From the NCBI RefSeq assembly GCF_016903815.1, contig NZ_CP069973.1: a DNA stretch of 64,000 nt. The stretch is one strand, 5' to 3'. The notes beneath the pieces were generated by a model. The model was not told the DNA's origin. It did not search any database and saw only the letters and a program-made list of their open reading frames with translations. Position numbers and translations under genes: made by a program. Below are positions 15,374 through 50,670 of this stretch, piece after piece (position 1 is the stretch's first letter; every line of letters begins with the position of its first letter). Source of the DNA: Escherichia coli (GTDB lineage: Bacteria; Pseudomonadota; Gammaproteobacteria; Enterobacterales; Enterobacteriaceae).

Positions 15374-17350
15374 ATGCAGCTTAATCATATCGTTAAAAGT
15401 CTGCTAATAACGGGATTATTCACCACCAGTTCTTTACCTCTCCTCGCGGCGGAAGCTCCTAAAGACGCCACCGCAGCCACGCAACAAGCAAACAATTTAC
15501 TCTACAACCAGTTGCCGTTTGCCGATAACACTGACTTTACTGATGCCCATAAAGGTTTTATTGCCCCTATCCCTCAAGACGTGATTAAGGGCGAACAAGG
15601 GAATGTTATCTGGGATCCACAACATTACGCTTTTATCAAAGAAGGCGATAAAGCCCCTGATACGGTGAATCCGAGTTTATGGCGTCAGGCGCAACTGATA
15701 AATATCAGCGGGTTATTCGAAGTAACTGAAGGTGTCTATCAGATTCGCAATCTCGATCTATCAAATATGACCATCATTGAAGGCAAAGAGGGTATTACCG
15801 TCGTTGATCCCCTTGTTTCAGCAGAAACAGCCAAAGTGGGTATGGATCTCTATTACAAAAATCGCGGCAAAAAACCGGTAGTGGCGGTTATCTATACACA
15901 CAGTCATGTCGATCACTACGGTGGTGTTCGTGGCGTAATTGATGAAGCTGACGTTAAATCAGGCAAAGTTAAAATCTATGCGCCAGCCGGATTTTTGGAG
16001 GAAGCCGTTTCCGAAAACATCATGGCTGGCAATGTTATGAGCCGACGAGCCAGTTATATGTATGGCAACTTATTGAAACCTGATGTTAAAGGCCAGGTGG
16101 GGGCTGGACTGGGAACGACTACTTCAGCAGGAACAGTCACGTTGATTGCTCCTACTAACTACATCACCAAAACCGGACAAATAGAAACTATTGACGGGTT
16201 GACTTATGATTTCCTGATGGCGCCAGGTTCTGAAGCGCCTTCTGAAATGCTGTGGTTTATTGAAGAAAAGAAACTGATCGAAACCGCTGAAGATGTCACG
16301 CACACCCTTCATAACACCTATTCGCTGCGTGGGGCTAAAATTCGCCAACCGCTGCCGTGGTCAAAATATATTAATGAAGCTCTCAATTTGTGGGGTGATA
16401 AAGCCGAGATTATTCTCGCTCAACATCACTGGCCAACCTGGGGCAACGATAACGTGGTCAAACTGCTTAAAAGCCAGCGTGATTTGTATCGTTACATCAA
16501 TGATCAAACTCTGCGCATGGCTAATCAAGGGATGACCCGTGATGAAATTGCCGCAAACTTTAAACTGCCCTCTTCACTGGCTAACACCTGGGCGAATCGC
16601 GGCTATTACGGTTCGGTAAGTCATGACGTGAAAGCAACTTACGTGCTTTATCTCGGCTGGTTTGATGGTAACCCCGCGACGCTTGATGAACTGCCGCCAG
16701 AAGAAGGCGCAAAAAAATTCGTCGAGTATATGGGCGGTGCTGATGCCATTTTACAGAAAGCCACACAGGATTATGACCAGGGTAATTTCCGCTGGGTTGC
16801 CCAAGTTGTTAGTAAGGTGGTGTTTGCCGATCCAAACAACCAGGCAGCGAGAGATCTGGAAGCTGATGCGCTTGAGCAGTTAGGCTATCAGGCTGAATCT
16901 GGGCCGTGGCGTAATTTCTATCTCACTGGTGCACAGGAATTGCGTAATGGCGTACAAAAATTACCAACACCAAATACTGCCAGCCCAGACACCGTGCGTG
17001 CGATGACGCCGGAGATGTTCTTTGATTATCTTGCCGTCCATATTAATGGTGAGAAAGCGGCAGATGCCAAAACCGTGTTGAATTTCGATTTTGGTGAAGA
17101 TGGCGGCACCTATAAAGTGGAGCTTGAAAATGGTGTTCTCAATCATACCGCTGGTGTAGAGGCTTCGGATGCTGATGCCACTATCACTCTGTCTCGTGAT
17201 GTATTGAACAAAATTGTACTGAAAGAAGAGACGCTGAAAGAAGCCACGGCCAAAGGAGATGTCAAAATTACTGGCAATGAGGAAAAACTCAACGAGCTGT
17301 TAGGTTATATGGATAATTTTGAATTTTGGTTCAATATAGTGACACCATAA
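15374..17350 (+). CDS. Secreted alkyl/aryl-sulfatase, metallo-beta-lactamase fold (SdsA1/YjcS family)
   Basis: 658 aa; signal peptide; THSHVDHYGG zinc motif; GGAGA RBS; not present at this position in K-12 as I recall it. Confidence 0.8.
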   Translation: MQLNHIVKSLLITGLFTTSSLPLLAAEAPKDATAATQQANNLLYNQLPFADNTDFTDAHKGFIAPIPQDVIKGEQGNVIWDPQHYAFIKEGDKAPDTVNPSLWRQAQLINISGLFEVTEGVYQIRNLDLSNMTIIEGKEGITVVDPLVSAETAKVGMDLYYKNRGKKPVVAVIYTHSHVDHYGGVRGVIDEADVKSGKVKIYAPAGFLEEAVSENIMAGNVMSRRASYMYGNLLKPDVKGQVGAGLGTTTSAGTVTLIAPTNYITKTGQIETIDGLTYDFLMAPGSEAPSEMLWFIEEKKLIETAEDVTHTLHNTYSLRGAKIRQPLPWSKYINEALNLWGDKAEIILAQHHWPTWGNDNVVKLLKSQRDLYRYINDQTLRMANQGMTRDEIAANFKLPSSLANTWANRGYYGSVSHDVKATYVLYLGWFDGNPATLDELPPEEGAKKFVEYMGGADAILQKATQDYDQGNFRWVAQVVSKVVFADPNNQAARDLEADALEQLGYQAESGPWRNFYLTGAQELRNGVQKLPTPNTASPDTVRAMTPEMFFDYLAVHINGEKAADAKTVLNFDFGEDGGTYKVELENGVLNHTAGVEASDADATITLSRDVLNKIVLKEETLKEATAKGDVKITGNEEKLNELLGYMDNFEFWFNIVTP

Positions 17351-17360
17351 ATTTACTGCA

Positions 17361-17390
17361 TACCGGGCAGGTATCCTGCCCTTTTTTGGT
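17361..17390 (+). terminator. Rho-independent terminator after the sulfatase gene
   Basis: gggcagg-tatc-ctgccc followed by tttttt. Confidence 0.6.
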
Positions 17391-17396
17391 TAAAAA

Positions 17397-18494
17397 ATGG
17401 CTGAACGAAGAAAAACTCATCACTCATGGAAAACCCGCCGCGATATGGTTATTCGCGGCATGACGATTAGTTTGCCATGGTTTGCTTTTATCAATGTCAG
17501 TTTTGCATTGATAATTTTGCTGCGCCGTGTTCTGTTTAATGACCTTACTCCACCCTGGTTAAATGAAAAAAGCCTTATACATTCTATTGATATATCTGCA
17601 ACGGGTATTCTGCTGATTTGCAGTGGTTTACTACTCATCCCTCGGCAAAAAACATTACCTATCCAGGTGCTATTAGTTGCCCTGAGCCTGCTATGGTCAT
17701 GGTGTAGTTATCACTTTATTGCGTACTGGACGCTGCAGTTTGCTTATCCACTATGTGTATTATTAATGCTTAGTGGCGTTGTCGCACTTTATTTCCATAC
17801 CCCATCATTGCTCGCATTTGTCATTCCCTTATGGTTCACCACTCCAATAGCGAGTCTTATGCTTAATCAACAGATCAATATTCATTTTGCTGTTGTATGG
17901 TGTATTTTTTCACTGGCGCTATATGGTGGGCGACTCATTTTGTTACGTTGGTTTGAAGAAGCATGGATACAAAACAGTTATAACAACCAGTTAATTAATC
18001 GCCTTGATGCATTAGCACATCGTGATCCTTTAACTGGGATAGCAAACCGACGTGCAATGAACAGTATCTTACACGACGCGATGGATAACGGCGGGTCATT
18101 TGCTCTTATTATGCTGGATGTCGATTTTTTTAAACGTTACAACGACACTTACGGGCATCCTGCTGGGGATCGTTGTCTAATACAAGTTGCCGACGCTCTA
18201 CAGCGTTCAACTCGCCAGTCGGAGGATGTTGTTGTCCGTTATGGTGGCGAAGAGTTTGCCATCATACTTTTTAATGCAACATTGCCGGAAGCAGAGACGG
18301 TAGCAGCCAGAGTGAAGCAAGAACTTAAACTGGCAGCTATCCCACATCAGGCATCTGCTGTTAATGCATTTGTTACGGTTAGTCAGGGGATTACCTGTTC
18401 TGCTCCCGCAAAAACGGCTGAACAAATTATTTCAGATGCCGACGCTGCGTTATACCGGGCGAAAGAAAGTGGGCGAAATCGATGGGCTTTATAA
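17397..18494 (+). CDS. Membrane-anchored diguanylate cyclase (multi-TM N-terminal domain + GGDEF)
   Basis: 365-aa ORF; hydrophobic N-terminal ~200 aa; RYGGEEF active-site motif; start codon uncertain (no clear RBS; internal Met candidates at 17445 and 17460); AT-rich. Confidence 0.8.
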   Translation: MAERRKTHHSWKTRRDMVIRGMTISLPWFAFINVSFALIILLRRVLFNDLTPPWLNEKSLIHSIDISATGILLICSGLLLIPRQKTLPIQVLLVALSLLWSWCSYHFIAYWTLQFAYPLCVLLMLSGVVALYFHTPSLLAFVIPLWFTTPIASLMLNQQINIHFAVVWCIFSLALYGGRLILLRWFEEAWIQNSYNNQLINRLDALAHRDPLTGIANRRAMNSILHDAMDNGGSFALIMLDVDFFKRYNDTYGHPAGDRCLIQVADALQRSTRQSEDVVVRYGGEEFAIILFNATLPEAETVAARVKQELKLAAIPHQASAVNAFVTVSQGITCSAPAKTAEQIISDADAALYRAKESGRNRWAL

Positions 18495-18567: not shown

Positions 18568-19119
18568 CTATCTTCTTAGCGATGTCTTTCTGGTATCACA
18601 TTGGATCGGTGCAATTATTTTTCCTTTAATACCCATTATGTTAAGAAATTCAGAAACAGCTGTAATCTCATTGTTTTTTTCATTCGTCTTGATCTTCCAA
18701 GGAATCTGACTGTGCATTATTGAGAACACACTAATAACGTGAATCGCTCCCTTGCGACGACTCTTGTCATAAGAGTACCGGAGCGTTTTTCCATCAATTG
18801 CAATGACGTCTTTATCATCTGAAGAATGGCAGTCAAGCATCCAGTTAATAAAGCACTCATGAAATTTTTCAGGACTGATACAGGATACAACTCTGGCAAT
18901 GGTATCGTGAACAGGAATACCATTATCAAAATCACCATATTGCTTCAAAAAATCGAGATGTGTTTCCCCAAAATCCTCTATATCTTCCCAGCCTTCTGCA
19001 CCCGAAATAACGGCACAAATAGTCAACAGTAGAATATCCGATAATTTATGCTCCACTTTCCAGGCTTGTCTGTAATCGGGGATAATAGAAATATGTTCCA
19101 TCAATTTTTTAAGTTCCAT
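18568..19119 (-). mobile_element. H-repeat-associated (ISAs1-family) transposase, N-terminal fragment only
   Basis: 183 aa, [50 protein letters not shown]... recognised as H-rpt/YdcC-like; full-length proteins are about twice this size. Confidence 0.75.
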
Positions 19120-19254
19120 TTTGTTCTCCTTAATTATGTAAAGAGTATTTGATCATGTATAAGCAATAAAAAACAGCTTTAGGTAATGAGGAATATCTCA
19201 ATTTTTAAACATAAAATGCGAATTATTTAGTACAAAAAAGCAGCGTTACGTGAT

Positions 19255-19390
19255 CTTTCCCTGCCCTATCGGGTCTGTGTGATATATCGTCCCTGTCCCG
19301 GATTGTAGTACCGGTGCCAGTTGTAGTGCAGTTCGGATTCGTCGTCATACTGCTAGCCCGGATGGCGGAGCAGTTGCTCTAGTCACTCAG
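19255..19390 (-). pseudogene. Vestigial rhs core 3'-end fragment (nonsense + frameshift)
   Basis: Minus-strand translation [34 protein letters not shown] aligns with the main Rhs ...[35 protein letters not shown]; clear nucleotide similarity to 20331..20460. Confidence 0.6.
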
Positions 19391-19424
19391 AATATTGTAA
19401 TAGTAATATAGTGCAGTGCCGGTT

Positions 19425-19823
19425 TCAATATCCTAACGCTGGTCTTTTGCCTGTATTAACTGATTTAGCTGGTTTGCTACATATTAATGCCTTCAGATTT
19501 TCCCTTTCCTTGTCTGTGATACTGTCGCAAACCCTACTAGCCCATTCTACTTCACTCTTCTCCAGGCATTCAATTTTCTTATTGCTCATTGTTCTAATGT
19601 TTGGTGTTGCATCTCCATTTAATAACATCCATGTTTCATTTTTCTTCATAAAACATCTTCCATTATGTTCAAAGATATTAGGTGTGAATATATTATCAGA
19701 ATCCCATGTTACGACTTGCTCGAGGGCTATATTATCTTGATAGTCCATGCCAGAATTATAATAATCACAAGATATAATTATCATGGAAATAATTATCACT
19801 AATATCTTCCCAAGCATTTCCAT
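19425..19823 (-). CDS. Putative Rhs-toxin immunity lipoprotein
   Basis: 132 aa, immediately downstream of and abutting the rhs stop; lipobox IIS-C with Asp at +2; AT-rich; assignment is by position. Confidence 0.55.
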   Translation of the reverse strand: MEMLGKILVIIISMIIISCDYYNSGMDYQDNIALEQVVTWDSDNIFTPNIFEHNGRCFMKKNETWMLLNGDATPNIRTMSNKKIECLEKSEVEWASRVCDSITDKERENLKALICSKPAKSVNTGKRPALGY

Positions 19824-22800
19824 TTACTTTACCTCTTGAAATTTAAATGGGAATCCAGTGAAAGGACCTTTAGGCATAATATATCTTTGATATCCATAAA
19901 ACTCACCGAGCACTTGTAGGCTTATAGGCGCATTTGTATTCATAGAGGGGTTGTTAAACCCGCACGCCTCAAAAATCATGTTCGTTCGGCTAAAACAATT
20001 ATTTGCAACAGGAAGAGGCCCGAGGTTAATAGTTTTTAGTTTTTTATTAAGGTCTATTGCCTTATTCATCATACATTGTTCTTCTTCATCTGTTGTATCT
20101 ATTATCCAAATCCAGGTATCTCTGCGGGGTTGCATCTTTTTAAAATAATCAGAGACAGAGGCGCCCATCTCATCCCCAGTTCCCGAACTCATTAATCCAT
20201 ATCGATTTGCCGCCGCAGCATGCCCAAAAGGATTATCAGGAACGGGGCCATTACCTATTATCATAGTACTAAGGCCTAATGGATCAACGTGTTGCACTGG
20301 ATTCAGCGGATATTGGTACAGATTCCATCCCCCATCCCCCCCTATCGGGTCCTGGATGATATACCGCCCCTGCAACGGATCGTAGTACCGGTGACGGTTA
20401 TAATACAGCCCCGACTCCTCATCGTGTTGCTGCCCTGGCAGACGGTACGGCTGGTGCAGGTGATGCGGGTTTTCCTCATTCAGCAGGTTTCCCCACTCAT
20501 CATACTCCCCGCTCCACGCCGTATTGCCGTCTTCGCTGATGAGCGCCAGCGGCAGGCCCCGGTGGTCGCAGTGGTAAAGATGAACTTTTCGCGCCGGTGT
20601 GTATTCCGGCTCCACCTGTCTGGCCAGTTGCTCTACCGTCAGCCCGCACTGCGCAAGCCACGCCCGGCTTTCACTGCTCACGCGGTCTGCCCGGATTTCT
20701 TCCTCCAGTCTGTCCAGCAGCCGTACCAGTTCAGCCGGGAACACCACGCCGTGCCCGTCCTCGCTCCCTTCCTGCTGCAGCTTCTCCGCCAGGCTGTGGC
20801 GCTGCGTTTTCTCCCGCTCGCCGTTGTCTGTTTCGATGCGGATGAGTGGTGTGAAGCTTCCCGGCTCGTATACCGTCTGGATCCGGCTCTGTTGTGTCTG
20901 TATCGTCGTCAGCCTGTCACCGTCCCAGCCGTACCACGTTACCTCCGGTTTACGCGACAGCGACATCCACCCCGTCAGGTCACGTACCCGCCGCCACACC
21001 CGTTTACCCGTCCGGCGGCCCAGCGGGTCGTAGAGGTAGCGGCTCTCCACCTGCGGCTCGCCATGCTGTATCCGCGTGTAGAACTCTAGGCGGTGCTGGC
21101 TGTCGTAGTGGTAGTGGTGGGTCCGCTCGTCGTCCGTCCGTATCACACCCGCCGGGATGCGGTCCGTCTTCTCCGTCAGCCTGCCGTATTCATCGTGGCG
21201 GTAGACATAGTGCGCATCCTCCGCGATGCGGTTATCCAGCCACACTGTGAGTGTACTGTCCGGGTGCAGCTCCGGGTCCGGCAGCCGGTTGCCCGCCGGG
21301 TCCGTGGCATACGGGATGCGGATGTCCAGGTCCGGTGCGAGGGTGCGCACACTCGCCAGCCTGCCCGTGGCGCTGTAGCCGTATTCCCGCGTCTGTCGCG
21401 GGCCGCTGATGCGCACCAGGTCGCCGTTGTCATTCCACCCGTAGTCACGGTCATACACCAGGCTGTTCAGGTGCTGGCTCTGTAACTGGCCTGCGGGGGT
21501 GTATGTGCTGGTCAGTTCGTATGCGGCATTACTGCCTGCCATGCTGCCGAAGCTGCGCACCGTCTCCCGGTGCAGCCTGTCCCGCGTATACTCGACCCGC
21601 GGCGTCCCGCCCAGCTTCATGCCCGCCAGATAGCCGCTACCATAGGTCAGCCACTCCACCGGCGGCAGGCTGTCCGGCGTGACGCGGTTTGCCAGCCCCT
21701 GCTCGTTGTATGCGTGTTTCGTCTCATGCTGCCACAGCAGTTCCCCCGTCTCCGGGTTCTCCACCGTCTGGCGTTCGCCGGTCAGGCGGCCTTTATCGTC
21801 ATAGCCATAGTGGACGGCAACACGGTGGCCTTCACTGGTATGGCTGAGGGTGGTTAACCACCCGTGCTCATCATACTGCCACTGCTCTGCCGGGTCGCCG
21901 TTCACCGTCCGGTGCGTGATGCGGTCTGCTTCATCGTAGTACCACTGCGTGACCTGCCCCTCATCCTCGCTGCGGATGAGCTGCCCTGTGGCGCTGTACC
22001 GGTAACGCTGTGTCCTGCCATCAAAGCCGCGCTGCTCCGTCAGGCGGTCCAGCACATCGTAGGTAAATTCACTCCGGCTGCCGTTCTCGTTGGTCAGCGT
22101 GGTGACACGTCCTGCCGCGTCATACTCCATACTGCGCGTCAGCCCGCCCTGCGTGGTGCTGACCGCTTTTCCCCACGCATCGTACTGTGTCTCGCTCCGG
22201 TTGCCGTCCGGGGTGATAACGGCAGTCAGGTCGCCTGCGGCGTTGTACTCATACTGCGTTTCACGGCCCTGTGCGTCTTTCACCGAGGTTAACCGGCCAC
22301 GGTTGTCATAGCGGCGGTAACGGCTGATACCTTCCTCGCGGTGGACCGCCGTCATCTGACCAAAGCGGTCGTATTCATAGCGGGTCTGGTAGCCCGAGCA
22401 GTCGGTGAACGCCAGCAACTGCCCGTAGCGGCTCCAGGTCATCTGCCGGGTGCTGCCCGTCGCATCCGTTGTCGTCGCCGGTAACTCACTGTACGCGTCA
22501 TCGTAGCGGTAGCGTACTGTCTCCCCGCTGCGCGATGTCTCCGTTACCAGCCTGCCCGGTTCATCATATGCCCGGCGGCTCTCCAGCCCGTCCGGGGACA
22601 CCACTGCCGTCACCTGGTTCCCGTCGTTATAGTAAAATTTCGTCTCCCGCCCGTCCGGTGTGGTGATGTCCGTGATATCGCCTGACACCACATTCAGACC
22701 GTACTCTGTCCGCCGTCCCGCCGCGTCCGTCTGCGCCGTAAGCCTTCCTGCCGCGTCATACCCACTGTGCGTGGCGCTGCCGTCCGCCAGTTCTTTTTTC

Positions 22801-24095: not shown

Positions 24096-26204
24096 TCAGT
24101 ACTCTCTCATATCCGGCGTATCCTGCTTTTCATCAGGGGTCTTCGGTGGGGATTTCGAGGCTGCACAGTTCCAGTTAATCAACAGTGAGTCACCATTAAC
24201 CTGCTCCTTACCCTGCAAATGAATTTTTGTGCCGTTGAGAAAAATTTGTCCGTCCTTAGTCAGCACCAGCCTTGCCTTACCACAGCAGAGTTCCAGATGC
24301 TCACCGGCGGAGTAAATCGCGGTCTGCCCGGTATCATCCTTTTTCGTTTTACCAACGGTGAAGGTAACGTTATTTCCGACTTTGACGTCATAACCCAGCC
24401 CGACCATCAACGATTTATGCAAACCGATCTGCGAGGACTGCATCAGGGCCACCGAAGTGTTCATAATGCCACCTACCGTCGTCTGATACGCCACGCCCAC
24501 AGTCAGCGCACGAACAAGTCCAATCGTTTCCACCTGAACAGAGCCCACTTTAATGATCTGGTTACTGCCCACCGTCTCTATCTGGTTAACGCCCACCGTC
24601 TGTATCTGATTGTTGGTAACCGCAATCATCTGATTGTTGCCAATGGTCTCAGCATGGTTGTTTATCACATCCGTGGTGCGGTTATTCAGCACCTCGGTGT
24701 TCATGTTCTTCTGCGCGTGGATGTAGACCTGTTCTTTCCCTGTCGCATCGTCAAACTTCAGTTCATTAAACCCGCTGCCCTTATAGGTTTTCGAACGAAT
24801 GGTCATCTGCGTCTTTGTTCCCGGCAGGCTGCCGGGGGTGCGGTTTTCCTGGTGGTAGGTACGCCCCATAATAATCGGCTGGTCCGGATCGCCGTTGAGG
24901 AAGTCCACAATGACTTCCTGACCCACACGCGGTATCGCCAGGTTGCCAAAGCCGGTGCCTGCCCACGCCTGTGCCACACGGATCCAGCATGAACTGTCCT
25001 GGTTTGACGGGTTATAGCGGTCCCAGTTAAATTTCACCCGCACGCGGCCATGTTCATCACAGAAGATTTCTTCTCCTGCCGGTCCCGTCACGACGGCGCT
25101 CTGCGGGCCGTCCACCAGCGGTTTCAGCAACGGCTGTGGCCGCCATGTTCTGTCTGCCGGTATTACCGCAAAGTGGTTATTCAGCGTGGTACCTGAACCC
25201 CTGCGTCCCGGCACCGCCTGCGGCTGCTCGCCGTGCAGTTCACTTGCCACCACCTGCCATTCCCGGTTCAGGTTCGCCTGCGGATGCCCCGTCAGCGCAA
25301 TTCGCCGTCCCGGCCATATCTCCGGCGAACGGCTTGTTCCGCGCGCCACTTCTGCGTTGTTTCGCCAGCCATCCATCTGCCAGCAGGCAAAGTTCTGCCC
25401 GTGGGCACCCTTGAAACGTCCGGGGTAGTCATACACTTCATACTGTGTGCGCTGGTAATCCTGGTGCTGGCCTTCCTGATCAAAACGCCCTGCCCAGCCG
25501 GGTCGTTTAAAGGTGTAGTCTTTGGTCACCACGGAAGATGGGCGGATTTGTGCGCTGTAGAGGAACTGGCTGATGCATAGGGTGCTCACCTCGGTACGGG
25601 TGTTCGGATTCCAGGGGATCTCAAAGGACTCCGGCAGATAACGCACGGTGTCGCACAGGACCAGGCTCTGGTCGGTACTTTTTTGCGCGTGCTCCTCATA
25701 AAAGAAGATGCCTTCCTCCGCCGCCATCCGGCACAGGAAATCGTAATCGGTTTCGCCGTACTGGACACAAAACTCACGGGAAGGATGCGGCTCGCTGAAC
25801 AGCGGACTCCACTCGGTCACCCCGTTTTCTTTCAGGATCGTCGCGAGTATGCTTTCGATGTCCTCATTCTGGAAGATACGGAAGTTCTGGCGCAGCCCTG
25901 TGCGCCACAGTGGTGGGCACACCTTCATGCTGTACAGCATCTGGTTTTTGTCGTTCTCCCCCAGTTCAAACCAGGTCACCACACCTTTCACCCGGCGCTG
26001 TACGTCATCGCCCTGCCATACCGTCAGGTAGGCCATTTTGTCCAGCACCTGCGCAAATTCAAGGGAGAGAAACTGCTGGCTGACCAGAGAGAGATCGAGG
26101 GAAAAGAGCGAAGAGAATGACTGGTTCAGATGAAAGGAGACCACCGCAAACGCGTCCGGTGGCAGGCCGTCCACTTCCAGCGTGAAACGTAATCCGGCTG
26201 ACAT
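24096..26204 (-). CDS. vgrG: Type VI secretion spike protein VgrG
   Basis: 702 aa from MSAGLRFTLEVDGLPPDAFAVVSF (internal Met of the track ORF, GGAGG RBS 7 nt upstream); 66 nt upstream of rhs. Confidence 0.88.
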   Translation of the reverse strand: MSAGLRFTLEVDGLPPDAFAVVSFHLNQSFSSLFSLDLSLVSQQFLSLEFAQVLDKMAYLTVWQGDDVQRRVKGVVTWFELGENDKNQMLYSMKVCPPLWRTGLRQNFRIFQNEDIESILATILKENGVTEWSPLFSEPHPSREFCVQYGETDYDFLCRMAAEEGIFFYEEHAQKSTDQSLVLCDTVRYLPESFEIPWNPNTRTEVSTLCISQFLYSAQIRPSSVVTKDYTFKRPGWAGRFDQEGQHQDYQRTQYEVYDYPGRFKGAHGQNFACWQMDGWRNNAEVARGTSRSPEIWPGRRIALTGHPQANLNREWQVVASELHGEQPQAVPGRRGSGTTLNNHFAVIPADRTWRPQPLLKPLVDGPQSAVVTGPAGEEIFCDEHGRVRVKFNWDRYNPSNQDSSCWIRVAQAWAGTGFGNLAIPRVGQEVIVDFLNGDPDQPIIMGRTYHQENRTPGSLPGTKTQMTIRSKTYKGSGFNELKFDDATGKEQVYIHAQKNMNTEVLNNRTTDVINNHAETIGNNQMIAVTNNQIQTVGVNQIETVGSNQIIKVGSVQVETIGLVRALTVGVAYQTTVGGIMNTSVALMQSSQIGLHKSLMVGLGYDVKVGNNVTFTVGKTKKDDTGQTAIYSAGEHLELCCGKARLVLTKDGQIFLNGTKIHLQGKEQVNGDSLLINWNCAASKSPPKTPDEKQDTPDMREY

Positions 26205-50001: not shown

Positions 50002-50670
50002 CTACTTTTTGTTAACGTCAAACATGGTGGCATCGGTCGCCATGTCATCAATAACTTGTTTAATATTTTCGAAAGCCATTGGCGTACTTTCGTTATTCAG
50101 GTCTTTACCTTCGCCCTGACGAACGACTTTGATAACCGGTTTATTAGTCGCTGCATCAATCAGCTCACCTTCAAAATAGAGGCGAGTATCCATGGTACGG
50201 TGGCCTGTAGCCATTTGCGTCCCCGCAACCACTAATGCAACAGGAACCACTTCATAGAATTGCAGCCCTTCTTTGCTGGTATCTACACCGGTAATGGCCC
50301 CACGGAAAATCAGACTATGCGGCCCAGCGGTGGTAACCAGTGGTTTACGCTGCGCTATCGCTTCTTTCATTTCGGTGTTGGTATAGTTCAAAATTTTATC
50401 CAGAACTTTCTGCCCTACCTGGGTAGAAGGTTTCGGTACCGGATAATAAGTGATTGGGTTCCAGACGATGCTGTCATATTTGCTTTGATCAAAACTTGGG
50501 TCTACCCAACGTAAAACAGGTTTACCTGTTGCCGAGGTTGTTTCTTTTAAATCAGAGTAATTGTTTAAAAAACCAGAATATTTATCTGGCTGGGTGATTT
50601 TAGAGGCACAACCAGACAGAGCCAACAAGCCGCATAAAGCTGCAACTTTCGCAAATGATGTGGTACGCAT
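50002..50670 (-). CDS. ydcL: Lipoprotein YdcL
   Basis: 222 aa; lipobox LSGC. Confidence 0.8.
   Translation of the reverse strand: MRTTSFAKVAALCGLLALSGCASKITQPDKYSGFLNNYSDLKETTSATGKPVLRWVDPSFDQSKYDSIVWNPITYYPVPKPSTQVGQKVLDKILNYTNTEMKEAIAQRKPLVTTAGPHSLIFRGAITGVDTSKEGLQFYEVVPVALVVAGTQMATGHRTMDTRLYFEGELIDAATNKPVIKVVRQGEGKDLNNESTPMAFENIKQVIDDMATDATMFDVNKK

Follow-up and report, generated by a model that had tools for sequence, protein, structure and literature searches.

In which compartment does the toxin at the tip of an Rhs protein act, and is its immunity protein placed there? The question is raised by a locus in a 64,000-nucleotide stretch of an Escherichia coli genome (contig NZ_CP069973.1, assembly GCF_016903815.1; this whole stretch is referred to as the window), in which a complete rhs gene is followed by a small open reading frame (ORF), the putative immunity gene (Table 1). 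A preliminary description had noted that this ORF lies directly after rhs and that its product begins with a hydrophobic signal, a lipobox and Asp at position +2, all of which is confirmed by the sequence, a lipoprotein rule and the homologs. It had gone on to propose a periplasm-facing lipoprotein anchored in the inner membrane, together with a toxin acting in the periplasm or on the membrane. Both proposals are now supported computationally: the first by the signal, the lipobox, Cys+1 and Asp+2 in every homolog and four further invariant cysteines, and the second by the fold of the toxin, its resemblance to Tox-Act1 and TseH, membrane-tethered partners and Sec signals. The interpretation favored here, with a probability of about 0.72, is that the window encodes an inner-membrane lipoprotein immunity protein paired with a periplasm-acting, lipid-targeting Rhs toxin.

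A predicted lipoprotein with a conserved sorting residue

The N-terminus of the immunity protein, MEMLGKILVIIISMIIIS-C-D, passes a lipoprotein rule of the PROSITE PS51257 type, which demands K or R within the first 7 residues, an uncharged h-region, a lipobox of the form [LVI][ASTVI][GAS]C, and the Cys at position 15-35. The n-region contains Lys6, the h-region (ILVIIISMIIIS) consists of 12 uncharged residues, and the lipobox is IISC with its Cys at position 19. Two of the 239 window ORFs of at least 60 amino acids (aa) pass this rule, and shuffling the sequence leaves about one passing ORF in 170; by itself, the lipobox pattern (about 0.6% per ORF before Asp+2 is required) is only moderately significant. 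The other passing ORF (approximately 50002-50670, minus strand, 222 aa) begins with MRTTSFAKVAALCGLLALSGC-A and looks like a genuine lipoprotein, which, with Ala at +2, would be expected in the outer membrane.

It is conservation across homologs that gives decisive support to the lipoprotein prediction. The homologs compared come from E. coli, Salmonella, and metagenomes, and include genes directly 3' of distant tip homologs (L002, L006, L007, and L008); the starts of two of them, as placed by the gene caller, were corrected before comparison. All eight (36-80% identity) have a 16-18-residue signal with one to three K/R in the n-region, an h-region of 11-13 residues, and a lipobox of the form [LI][IVT][SAG]C (LVAC, ITSC, ITGC, LVSC, LISC, or IVSC). 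An h-region of this length is too short for a transmembrane helix. In the alignment, the homologs read Cys-Asp-Tyr-Tyr after the lipobox, while their signal sequences differ widely. Asp+2 is invariant in all homologs examined, whereas Tyr+3 is not fixed. For instance, P0001, the representative of the largest E. coli immunity cluster (672 member sequences), reads Cys-Asp-Cys-Tyr and thus has an extra Cys beside the one predicted to be lipidated. According to the +2 rule, Asp at this position leads to avoidance of the Lol system and retention in the inner membrane (PMC6469965, PMC9595528).

The 18-residue signal is the sole hydrophobic segment of the protein, and the remainder, a mature part of approximately 113 aa, is a soluble alpha/beta domain. 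In its predicted structure, a long helix at the N-terminus is accompanied by a small sheet and two further helices (predicted local distance difference test score, pLDDT, 83). Cysteines 57, 86, 99, and 115 are invariant across the aligned homologs; two disulfides would be the simplest explanation for this, which in turn suggests a periplasmic protein. Searches of Pfam and NCBIfam with the immunity protein returned only NANM/YjhT noise (E 0.01-0.08, far below the cut-offs), and a structural-neighbor search with the model gave nothing informative. The family is small, so far undescribed, and distinct from the two-helix Imm-Act1.

Fold and relatives of the Rhs tip

An exhaustive HMMER search with the tip returned 166 relatives, which with few exceptions form the C-terminal tip of an Rhs/YD protein. 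When 48 of them are aligned, N13, G16, H17, G30, R50, and C92 are invariant, and the motifs GNPFGH and DNCxxRTN are evident. The invariant His17 precedes the invariant Cys92, which is the permuted order of the papain-like fold. The AlphaFold model made with this alignment is confident (pLDDT 92; predicted template modeling score, pTM, 0.87), and its fold matches, of which YiiX, TseH, and DUF4105/Lnb_N proteins are the closest, also include 3kw0, RID, PPPDE, and PLAAT/LRAT (PLAAT4). Similarly, a Foldseek search against AFDB50 returned Rhs tips and many DUF4105 or "Lnb N-terminal periplasmic domain" proteins at 25-30% identity, and the tip-family profile matches PF13387-annotated Rhs tips of Salmonella salamae and Citrobacter (E ~1e-35). 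Sequence searches of the PDB with the tip and with the family profile gave nothing meaningful, and in a single pattern scan of genome contigs none of the 136 pattern matches was confirmed as a relative. The tip, which the preliminary description had left unassigned, is thereby placed by fold and profile: judged from its model, it is a predicted Cys-His hydrolase of the circularly permuted NlpC/P60 type, within the assemblage of Tox-Act1, TseH, and DUF4105 (Lnb_N). Its activity is most likely that of a phospholipase or acyl-hydrolase, a lipid substrate being extrapolated from Tox-Act1.

Pairing of tip and immunity gene

Each of the eight immunity homologs is encoded directly downstream of a homologous toxin tip. 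In the window, the rhs stop codon TAA (19826-19824) directly touches the immunity ATG (19823-21) to give TAAATG; the same abutment is found in L006, the two ORFs overlap in L002 and L008, and they are a few bases apart in L007. Toxin identities of 84, 63, 61, 57, and 54% are accompanied by immunity identities of 77, 36, 43, 36, and 39%, respectively. Divergence is thus faster in the immunity partner than in the toxin, as is seen in effector-immunity pairs. Additionally, the guanine-plus-cytosine (GC) content falls from approximately 0.65 in the rhs core to 0.30-0.39 in the tip and immunity gene, with the break at the DPLGL junction near 20270. Because this drop lasts through the immunity gene, the tip and immunity gene are likely to have been acquired separately as a cassette. 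By its sequence features, the pair is a classical Rhs tip/immunity cassette, in which the downstream product would confer protection. On a metagenomic contig (L006 1-3778), a full Rhs with a Tox-WTIP tip is followed by a 425-aa rhs fragment bearing a tip homolog and its lipoprotein partner, that is, an orphan tip/immunity array.

Partners of distant tips and the site of action

Genes 3' of more distant tip homologs (approximately 30% identity) encode partners that are unrelated to the window immunity protein and yet are all membrane-tethered (Table 1). Downstream of the PF13387 tip of Salmonella salamae (L010), no recognizable partner ORF was found. At least three unrelated partner architectures (Asp+2 lipoprotein, N-terminal anchor, and two helices) are tied to the inner membrane, which suggests a target within the inner membrane and not in the wall or outer membrane. 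Across the toxin superfamily, the partner architectures argue for the periplasmic leaflet of the inner membrane as the site of attack.

The toxins themselves provide a second indication. By simple hydrophobicity rules, a Sec signal peptide is present in approximately 40 of the 130 toxin homologs whose N-terminus is complete. These exported "mini-Rhs" toxins (e.g. P0208, P0240, P0186, and approximately 37 others; L009 2001-2687) have no shell, and consist of the signal peptide, the end of an Rhs core (DPIGLxGG...DPxGL), and the toxin. Since toxins with a signal peptide cross the producer's own periplasm, protection would be needed there. On L009 (2001-3967), two mini-Rhs toxins with different tips stand in tandem (2001-2687 and 3060-3743), each followed by an ORF for a small membrane protein (2690-3043 and 3740-3967).

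Proposed mechanism

In the favored interpretation, the immunity prolipoprotein would be made by translational coupling to rhs and would leave the cytoplasm by Sec; lipidation of Cys19, cleavage by signal peptidase II, and N-acylation would follow. Asp+2 would then block extraction by LolCDE, such that the protein is retained in the inner membrane with its small alpha/beta domain, probably stabilized by two disulfides, at the periplasmic face. The toxin would arrive from sister cells on a VgrG-Rhs spike and leave the Rhs shell after self-cleavage at DPLGL. Unblocked, it would hydrolyze acyl chains of inner-membrane lipids from the periplasm; the anchored immunity protein would bind and block the incoming toxin at the place where it would act. 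If so, a probable activity and site can be proposed for a common E. coli Rhs tip that has hitherto been annotated, with its partner, as "RHS element core protein" and "hypothetical protein".

Several points weigh against this interpretation. Signal and transmembrane calls throughout were made with simple heuristics (hydrophobicity rules) rather than with SignalP, LipoP, or DeepTMHMM. Within the lipobox, Ile is allowed at -3 and Ser at -1, but neither is the commonest residue at its position. The near-invariant Tyr-Tyr after the anchor is not accounted for by sorting. With regard to the toxin, Pfam gives no family for the tip, and PF13387 is touched weakly by 4 of the 48 relatives. The link to Tox-Act1 consists of fold matches and profile matches to PF13387-annotated tips rather than a direct sequence comparison with Tox-Act1. 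Rhs proteins usually carry toxins that act in the cytoplasm (PMC12994826), to which this Rhs cage with a predicted envelope-acting toxin would be a counterexample. Finally, strong retention signals of E. coli usually have Asp, Glu, or Gln at +3 after Asp+2 (PMC6469965), and the Tyr found here (Cys in P0001), which is non-basic, lies outside that set; in RcsF, moreover, hydrophobic residues at +3 favor LolCDE binding (PMC9595528). A literature search found no data on Tyr at +3 after Asp+2. Given the residue at +3 and the RcsF precedent, retention in the inner membrane could be partial, and its strength is uncertain.

Alternative interpretations

This last point speaks for the likeliest of the alternatives, which is nevertheless unlikely: that export of the immunity protein is not followed by its retention in the inner membrane. 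If Tyr+3 weakens Asp+2, the protein would be an outer-membrane lipoprotein, and if it is instead cleaved by signal peptidase I, it would be soluble in the periplasm; protection would still take place in the periplasm in either case. The sequence I-I-S is compatible with the -3/-1 rule of signal peptidase I, and outer-membrane lipoproteins serve as immunity proteins against other type VI secretion system (T6SS) lipases. A requirement for "certain residues at +3" has also been stated for retention (PMC9595528), in line with the departure from the Asp/Glu/Gln set (PMC6469965). However, Cys+1 and Asp+2 are kept without exception down to 36% identity, in contrast to the freely varying signal residues around them; were lipidation and sorting both unimportant, this would be difficult to account for. 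Furthermore, inner-membrane tethering is shared by three unrelated types of partner that accompany related toxins (including that in PMC12994826).

A rather improbable alternative is that the tip attacks peptidoglycan as an amidase or endopeptidase, which was the first proposal for TseH and is the case for Tae/Tse1, the canonical NlpC/P60 effectors, with the lipoprotein merely a periplasmic inhibitor. TseH has indeed been reported as a cell-wall-degrading enzyme that lyses permeabilized cells (PMC4453574). In contrast, the best fold matches of the tip are all from the permuted branch, the known members of which act on acyl groups, the sacculus is intact in cells lysed by Tox-Act1, and TseH has shown phospholipase activity in a liposome assay (PMC12994826). 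The tethering of every partner type likewise indicates the membrane over the wall.

If the toxin acts on acyl chains, as the preferred interpretation holds, then the conserved N-terminus of the mature immunity protein might be more than an anchor. The enzymes most closely related to the toxin (Lnb, LRAT-like enzymes, and RID) work on acyl chains, Lnb on the lipidated N-terminus of lipoproteins, and on this basis the lipidated Cys-Asp-Tyr-Tyr end could be a substrate mimic, that is, a decoy for the acyl-binding active site of the toxin. Substrate mimicry would account for the near-invariant residues after the anchor, beyond the needs of sorting, and would mean that this clade of toxins is really directed against lipoproteins of the inner membrane, or intermediates in their maturation, and not against bulk phospholipid; the idea is nevertheless very doubtful.

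A cytoplasmic immunity protein translated from Met26 or a later Met, its hydrophobic N-terminus being an artifact of calling the longest ORF, is scarcely credible: in-frame ATGs are available (codons 3, 14, 26, 59, 66, and 79) and some database entries, apparently fragments, start at Met59, but the sole good Shine-Dalgarno site belongs to Met1 (Table 1), with no comparable site at the other in-frame starts, RefSeq uses the same start, an upstream start yields a full signal peptide in every homolog, the segment 5' of Met26 (C-D-Y-Y-N-A..E-Y) is conserved at the protein level, and the four conserved cysteines suit an oxidizing compartment. In place of Met26, the earliest start from which the signal would be missing, homologs have Leu, Thr, or Arg, so that the case which the preliminary description had set against its own prediction, a downstream start lacking the signal, has neither a Shine-Dalgarno site nor conservation at Met26 in its favor.

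Comparison with known effector-immunity pairs

The closest characterized system is Tox-Act1 (2026), an effector of the Salmonella pathogenicity island 6 (SPI-6) T6SS with a permuted NlpC/P60 core, which groups as the sister of DUF4105/Lnb, with TseH, LRAT, and YiiX as further relatives (PMC12994826). It is toxic in the periplasm and not in the cytoplasm, an effect that depends on its His and Cys; it produces lysolipids from phosphatidylglycerol and phosphatidylethanolamine, and it lyses cells with the sacculus intact. Its immunity protein, Imm-Act1, is membrane-embedded (PMC12994826). The window pair resembles Tox-Act1/Imm-Act1 in the permuted core with His before Cys, in T6SS-type delivery (predicted here from the genes), and in an immunity gene directly downstream whose product is predicted to be tethered to the inner membrane. 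In contrast, the window tip has no PF13387 match of its own and belongs to a full-length Rhs protein, whereas Tox-Act1 is a small stand-alone effector. Similarly, Imm-Act1 contains a pair of transmembrane helices, whereas the window protein is an unrelated predicted lipoprotein with a folded periplasmic domain. The table of Tox-Act1 homologs includes Rhs proteins, among them one E. coli Rhs with a DUF4105 tip (QMP79959.1), and the Rhs and immunity accessions of the window are not among the supplementary-table entries of that study (PMC12994826).

TseH of Vibrio cholerae is likewise toxic solely in the periplasm (PMC4453574), and phospholipase activity has been reported for it in one assay (PMC12994826). 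Compared with TseH (PDB 6v98), the effector of the TseH/TsiH pair, however, identity is 7%, and TseH forms a separate clade, Pfam DUF6695 (PMC12994826). It is also a stand-alone effector encoded beside a PAAR gene, unlike the window Rhs tip. DUF4105/PF13387 is, according to the account of PMC11573676 given in PMC12994826, the periplasmic catalytic domain of Lnb, a lipoprotein N-acyltransferase of Bacteroides. Unlike the tip, Lnb and the YiiX/YaeF-like proteins (PDB 2if6 and 3kw0) are housekeeping enzymes and not toxins; no sequence match was detectable between the tip and 2if6 or 3kw0, and Lnb has an extra membrane domain. The Tli and Tsi/Tai immunity proteins of envelope-targeting T6SS effectors are exported to the compartment of the effector and are often lipid-anchored. 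The window protein would follow the same logic, being placed where its effector acts, but no sequence or fold relationship to these proteins was found, and its conserved Asp+2, which favors inner- over outer-membrane anchoring, distinguishes the family from them.

T6SS Rhs effector-immunity pairs with an envelope toxin and a lipid-anchored immunity protein are already known, and the toxin superfamily was characterized in 2026. New here are the probable placement of a common E. coli tip in that superfamily and an undescribed family of predicted lipoprotein immunity proteins with a conserved inner-membrane sorting residue. The result extends the 2026 finding rather than opening a new field.

The rhs locus and its genomic setting

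The coordinates of the features are collected in Table 1. A PF03527 RHS match lies directly before the tip, which is preceded by DPLGL. With vgrG annotated immediately upstream of rhs, delivery by type VI secretion is indicated, and the DPxGL motif, the adjacent vgrG, and the abutting immunity gene together form the layout of a T6SS Rhs effector, for which T6SS delivery is predicted from sequence.

Table 1. Features of the locus (positions in the window) and partners encoded 3' of distant tip homologs (positions, where given, in the named sequence)
Feature	Position	Strand	Basis or remark
Immunity gene, putative prolipoprotein, 132 aa + TGA stop	19425..19823	-	ORF call and translation
Predicted type II (lipoprotein) signal peptide MEMLGKILVIIISMIIIS, codons 1-18, lipobox I-I-S before Cys19	19770..19823	-	PROSITE-style rule
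Cys19 (+1, predicted lipidated; codon 19769-19767) and Asp20 (+2, predicted Lol avoidance; codon 19766-19764)	19764..19769	-	Invariant, alignments to 36% identity
Shine-Dalgarno site AAGAGGT, within rhs 3' end, 7 nt 5' of immunity ATG	19831..19837	-	Sequence reading
Complete rhs gene, 1401 aa	19824..24029	-	ORF; RefSeq "RHS element core protein" (WP_032153651.1)
Toxin tip at the Rhs C-terminus, 148 aa following the DPLGL cleavage motif	19827..20270	-	
vgrG, directly upstream of rhs	24096..26204	-	RefSeq annotation of identical E. coli 7/2 locus, offset 10299
Partner L004, 126 aa			N-terminal anchor
Partner L009, 117 aa			N-terminal anchor
Partner L005, 82 aa	7300-7548		Two hydrophobic helices, Imm-Act1-like
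Partner L003			Hydrophobic N-terminus

In E. coli 7/2, which has an identical locus, the coordinates of the RefSeq coding sequence WP_021523077.1 match the immunity ORF, and its label is "hypothetical protein". The order of features in that genome is narI, yddE, nhoA, yddH, pptA, a sulfatase gene, a GGDEF gene, an ISAs1 pseudogene, an rhs fragment, WP_021523077.1, WP_032153651.1, and vgrG, and the locus is of the rhsE type. A 1.2-kb query around the immunity gene is 100% identical in many complete genomes, and approximately 541 of 5426 genomes contain at least 80% of it.

An antisense ORF over the immunity gene (19411-19740, plus strand) was dismissed as an artifact of the AT-rich region. Downstream of the immunity gene are a short piece of rhs interrupted by an internal stop (19275-19382, minus strand) and, beyond it, an ISAs1 transposase pseudogene with a frameshift (18569-19119, minus strand); both (18569-19382) are what earlier displacement of a tip, or insertion, has left behind. 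Between pptA and the rhs region (15374-18494), the window contains an alkyl/aryl-sulfatase gene and a gene with a GGDEF domain, which are presumably absent at this position in K-12.
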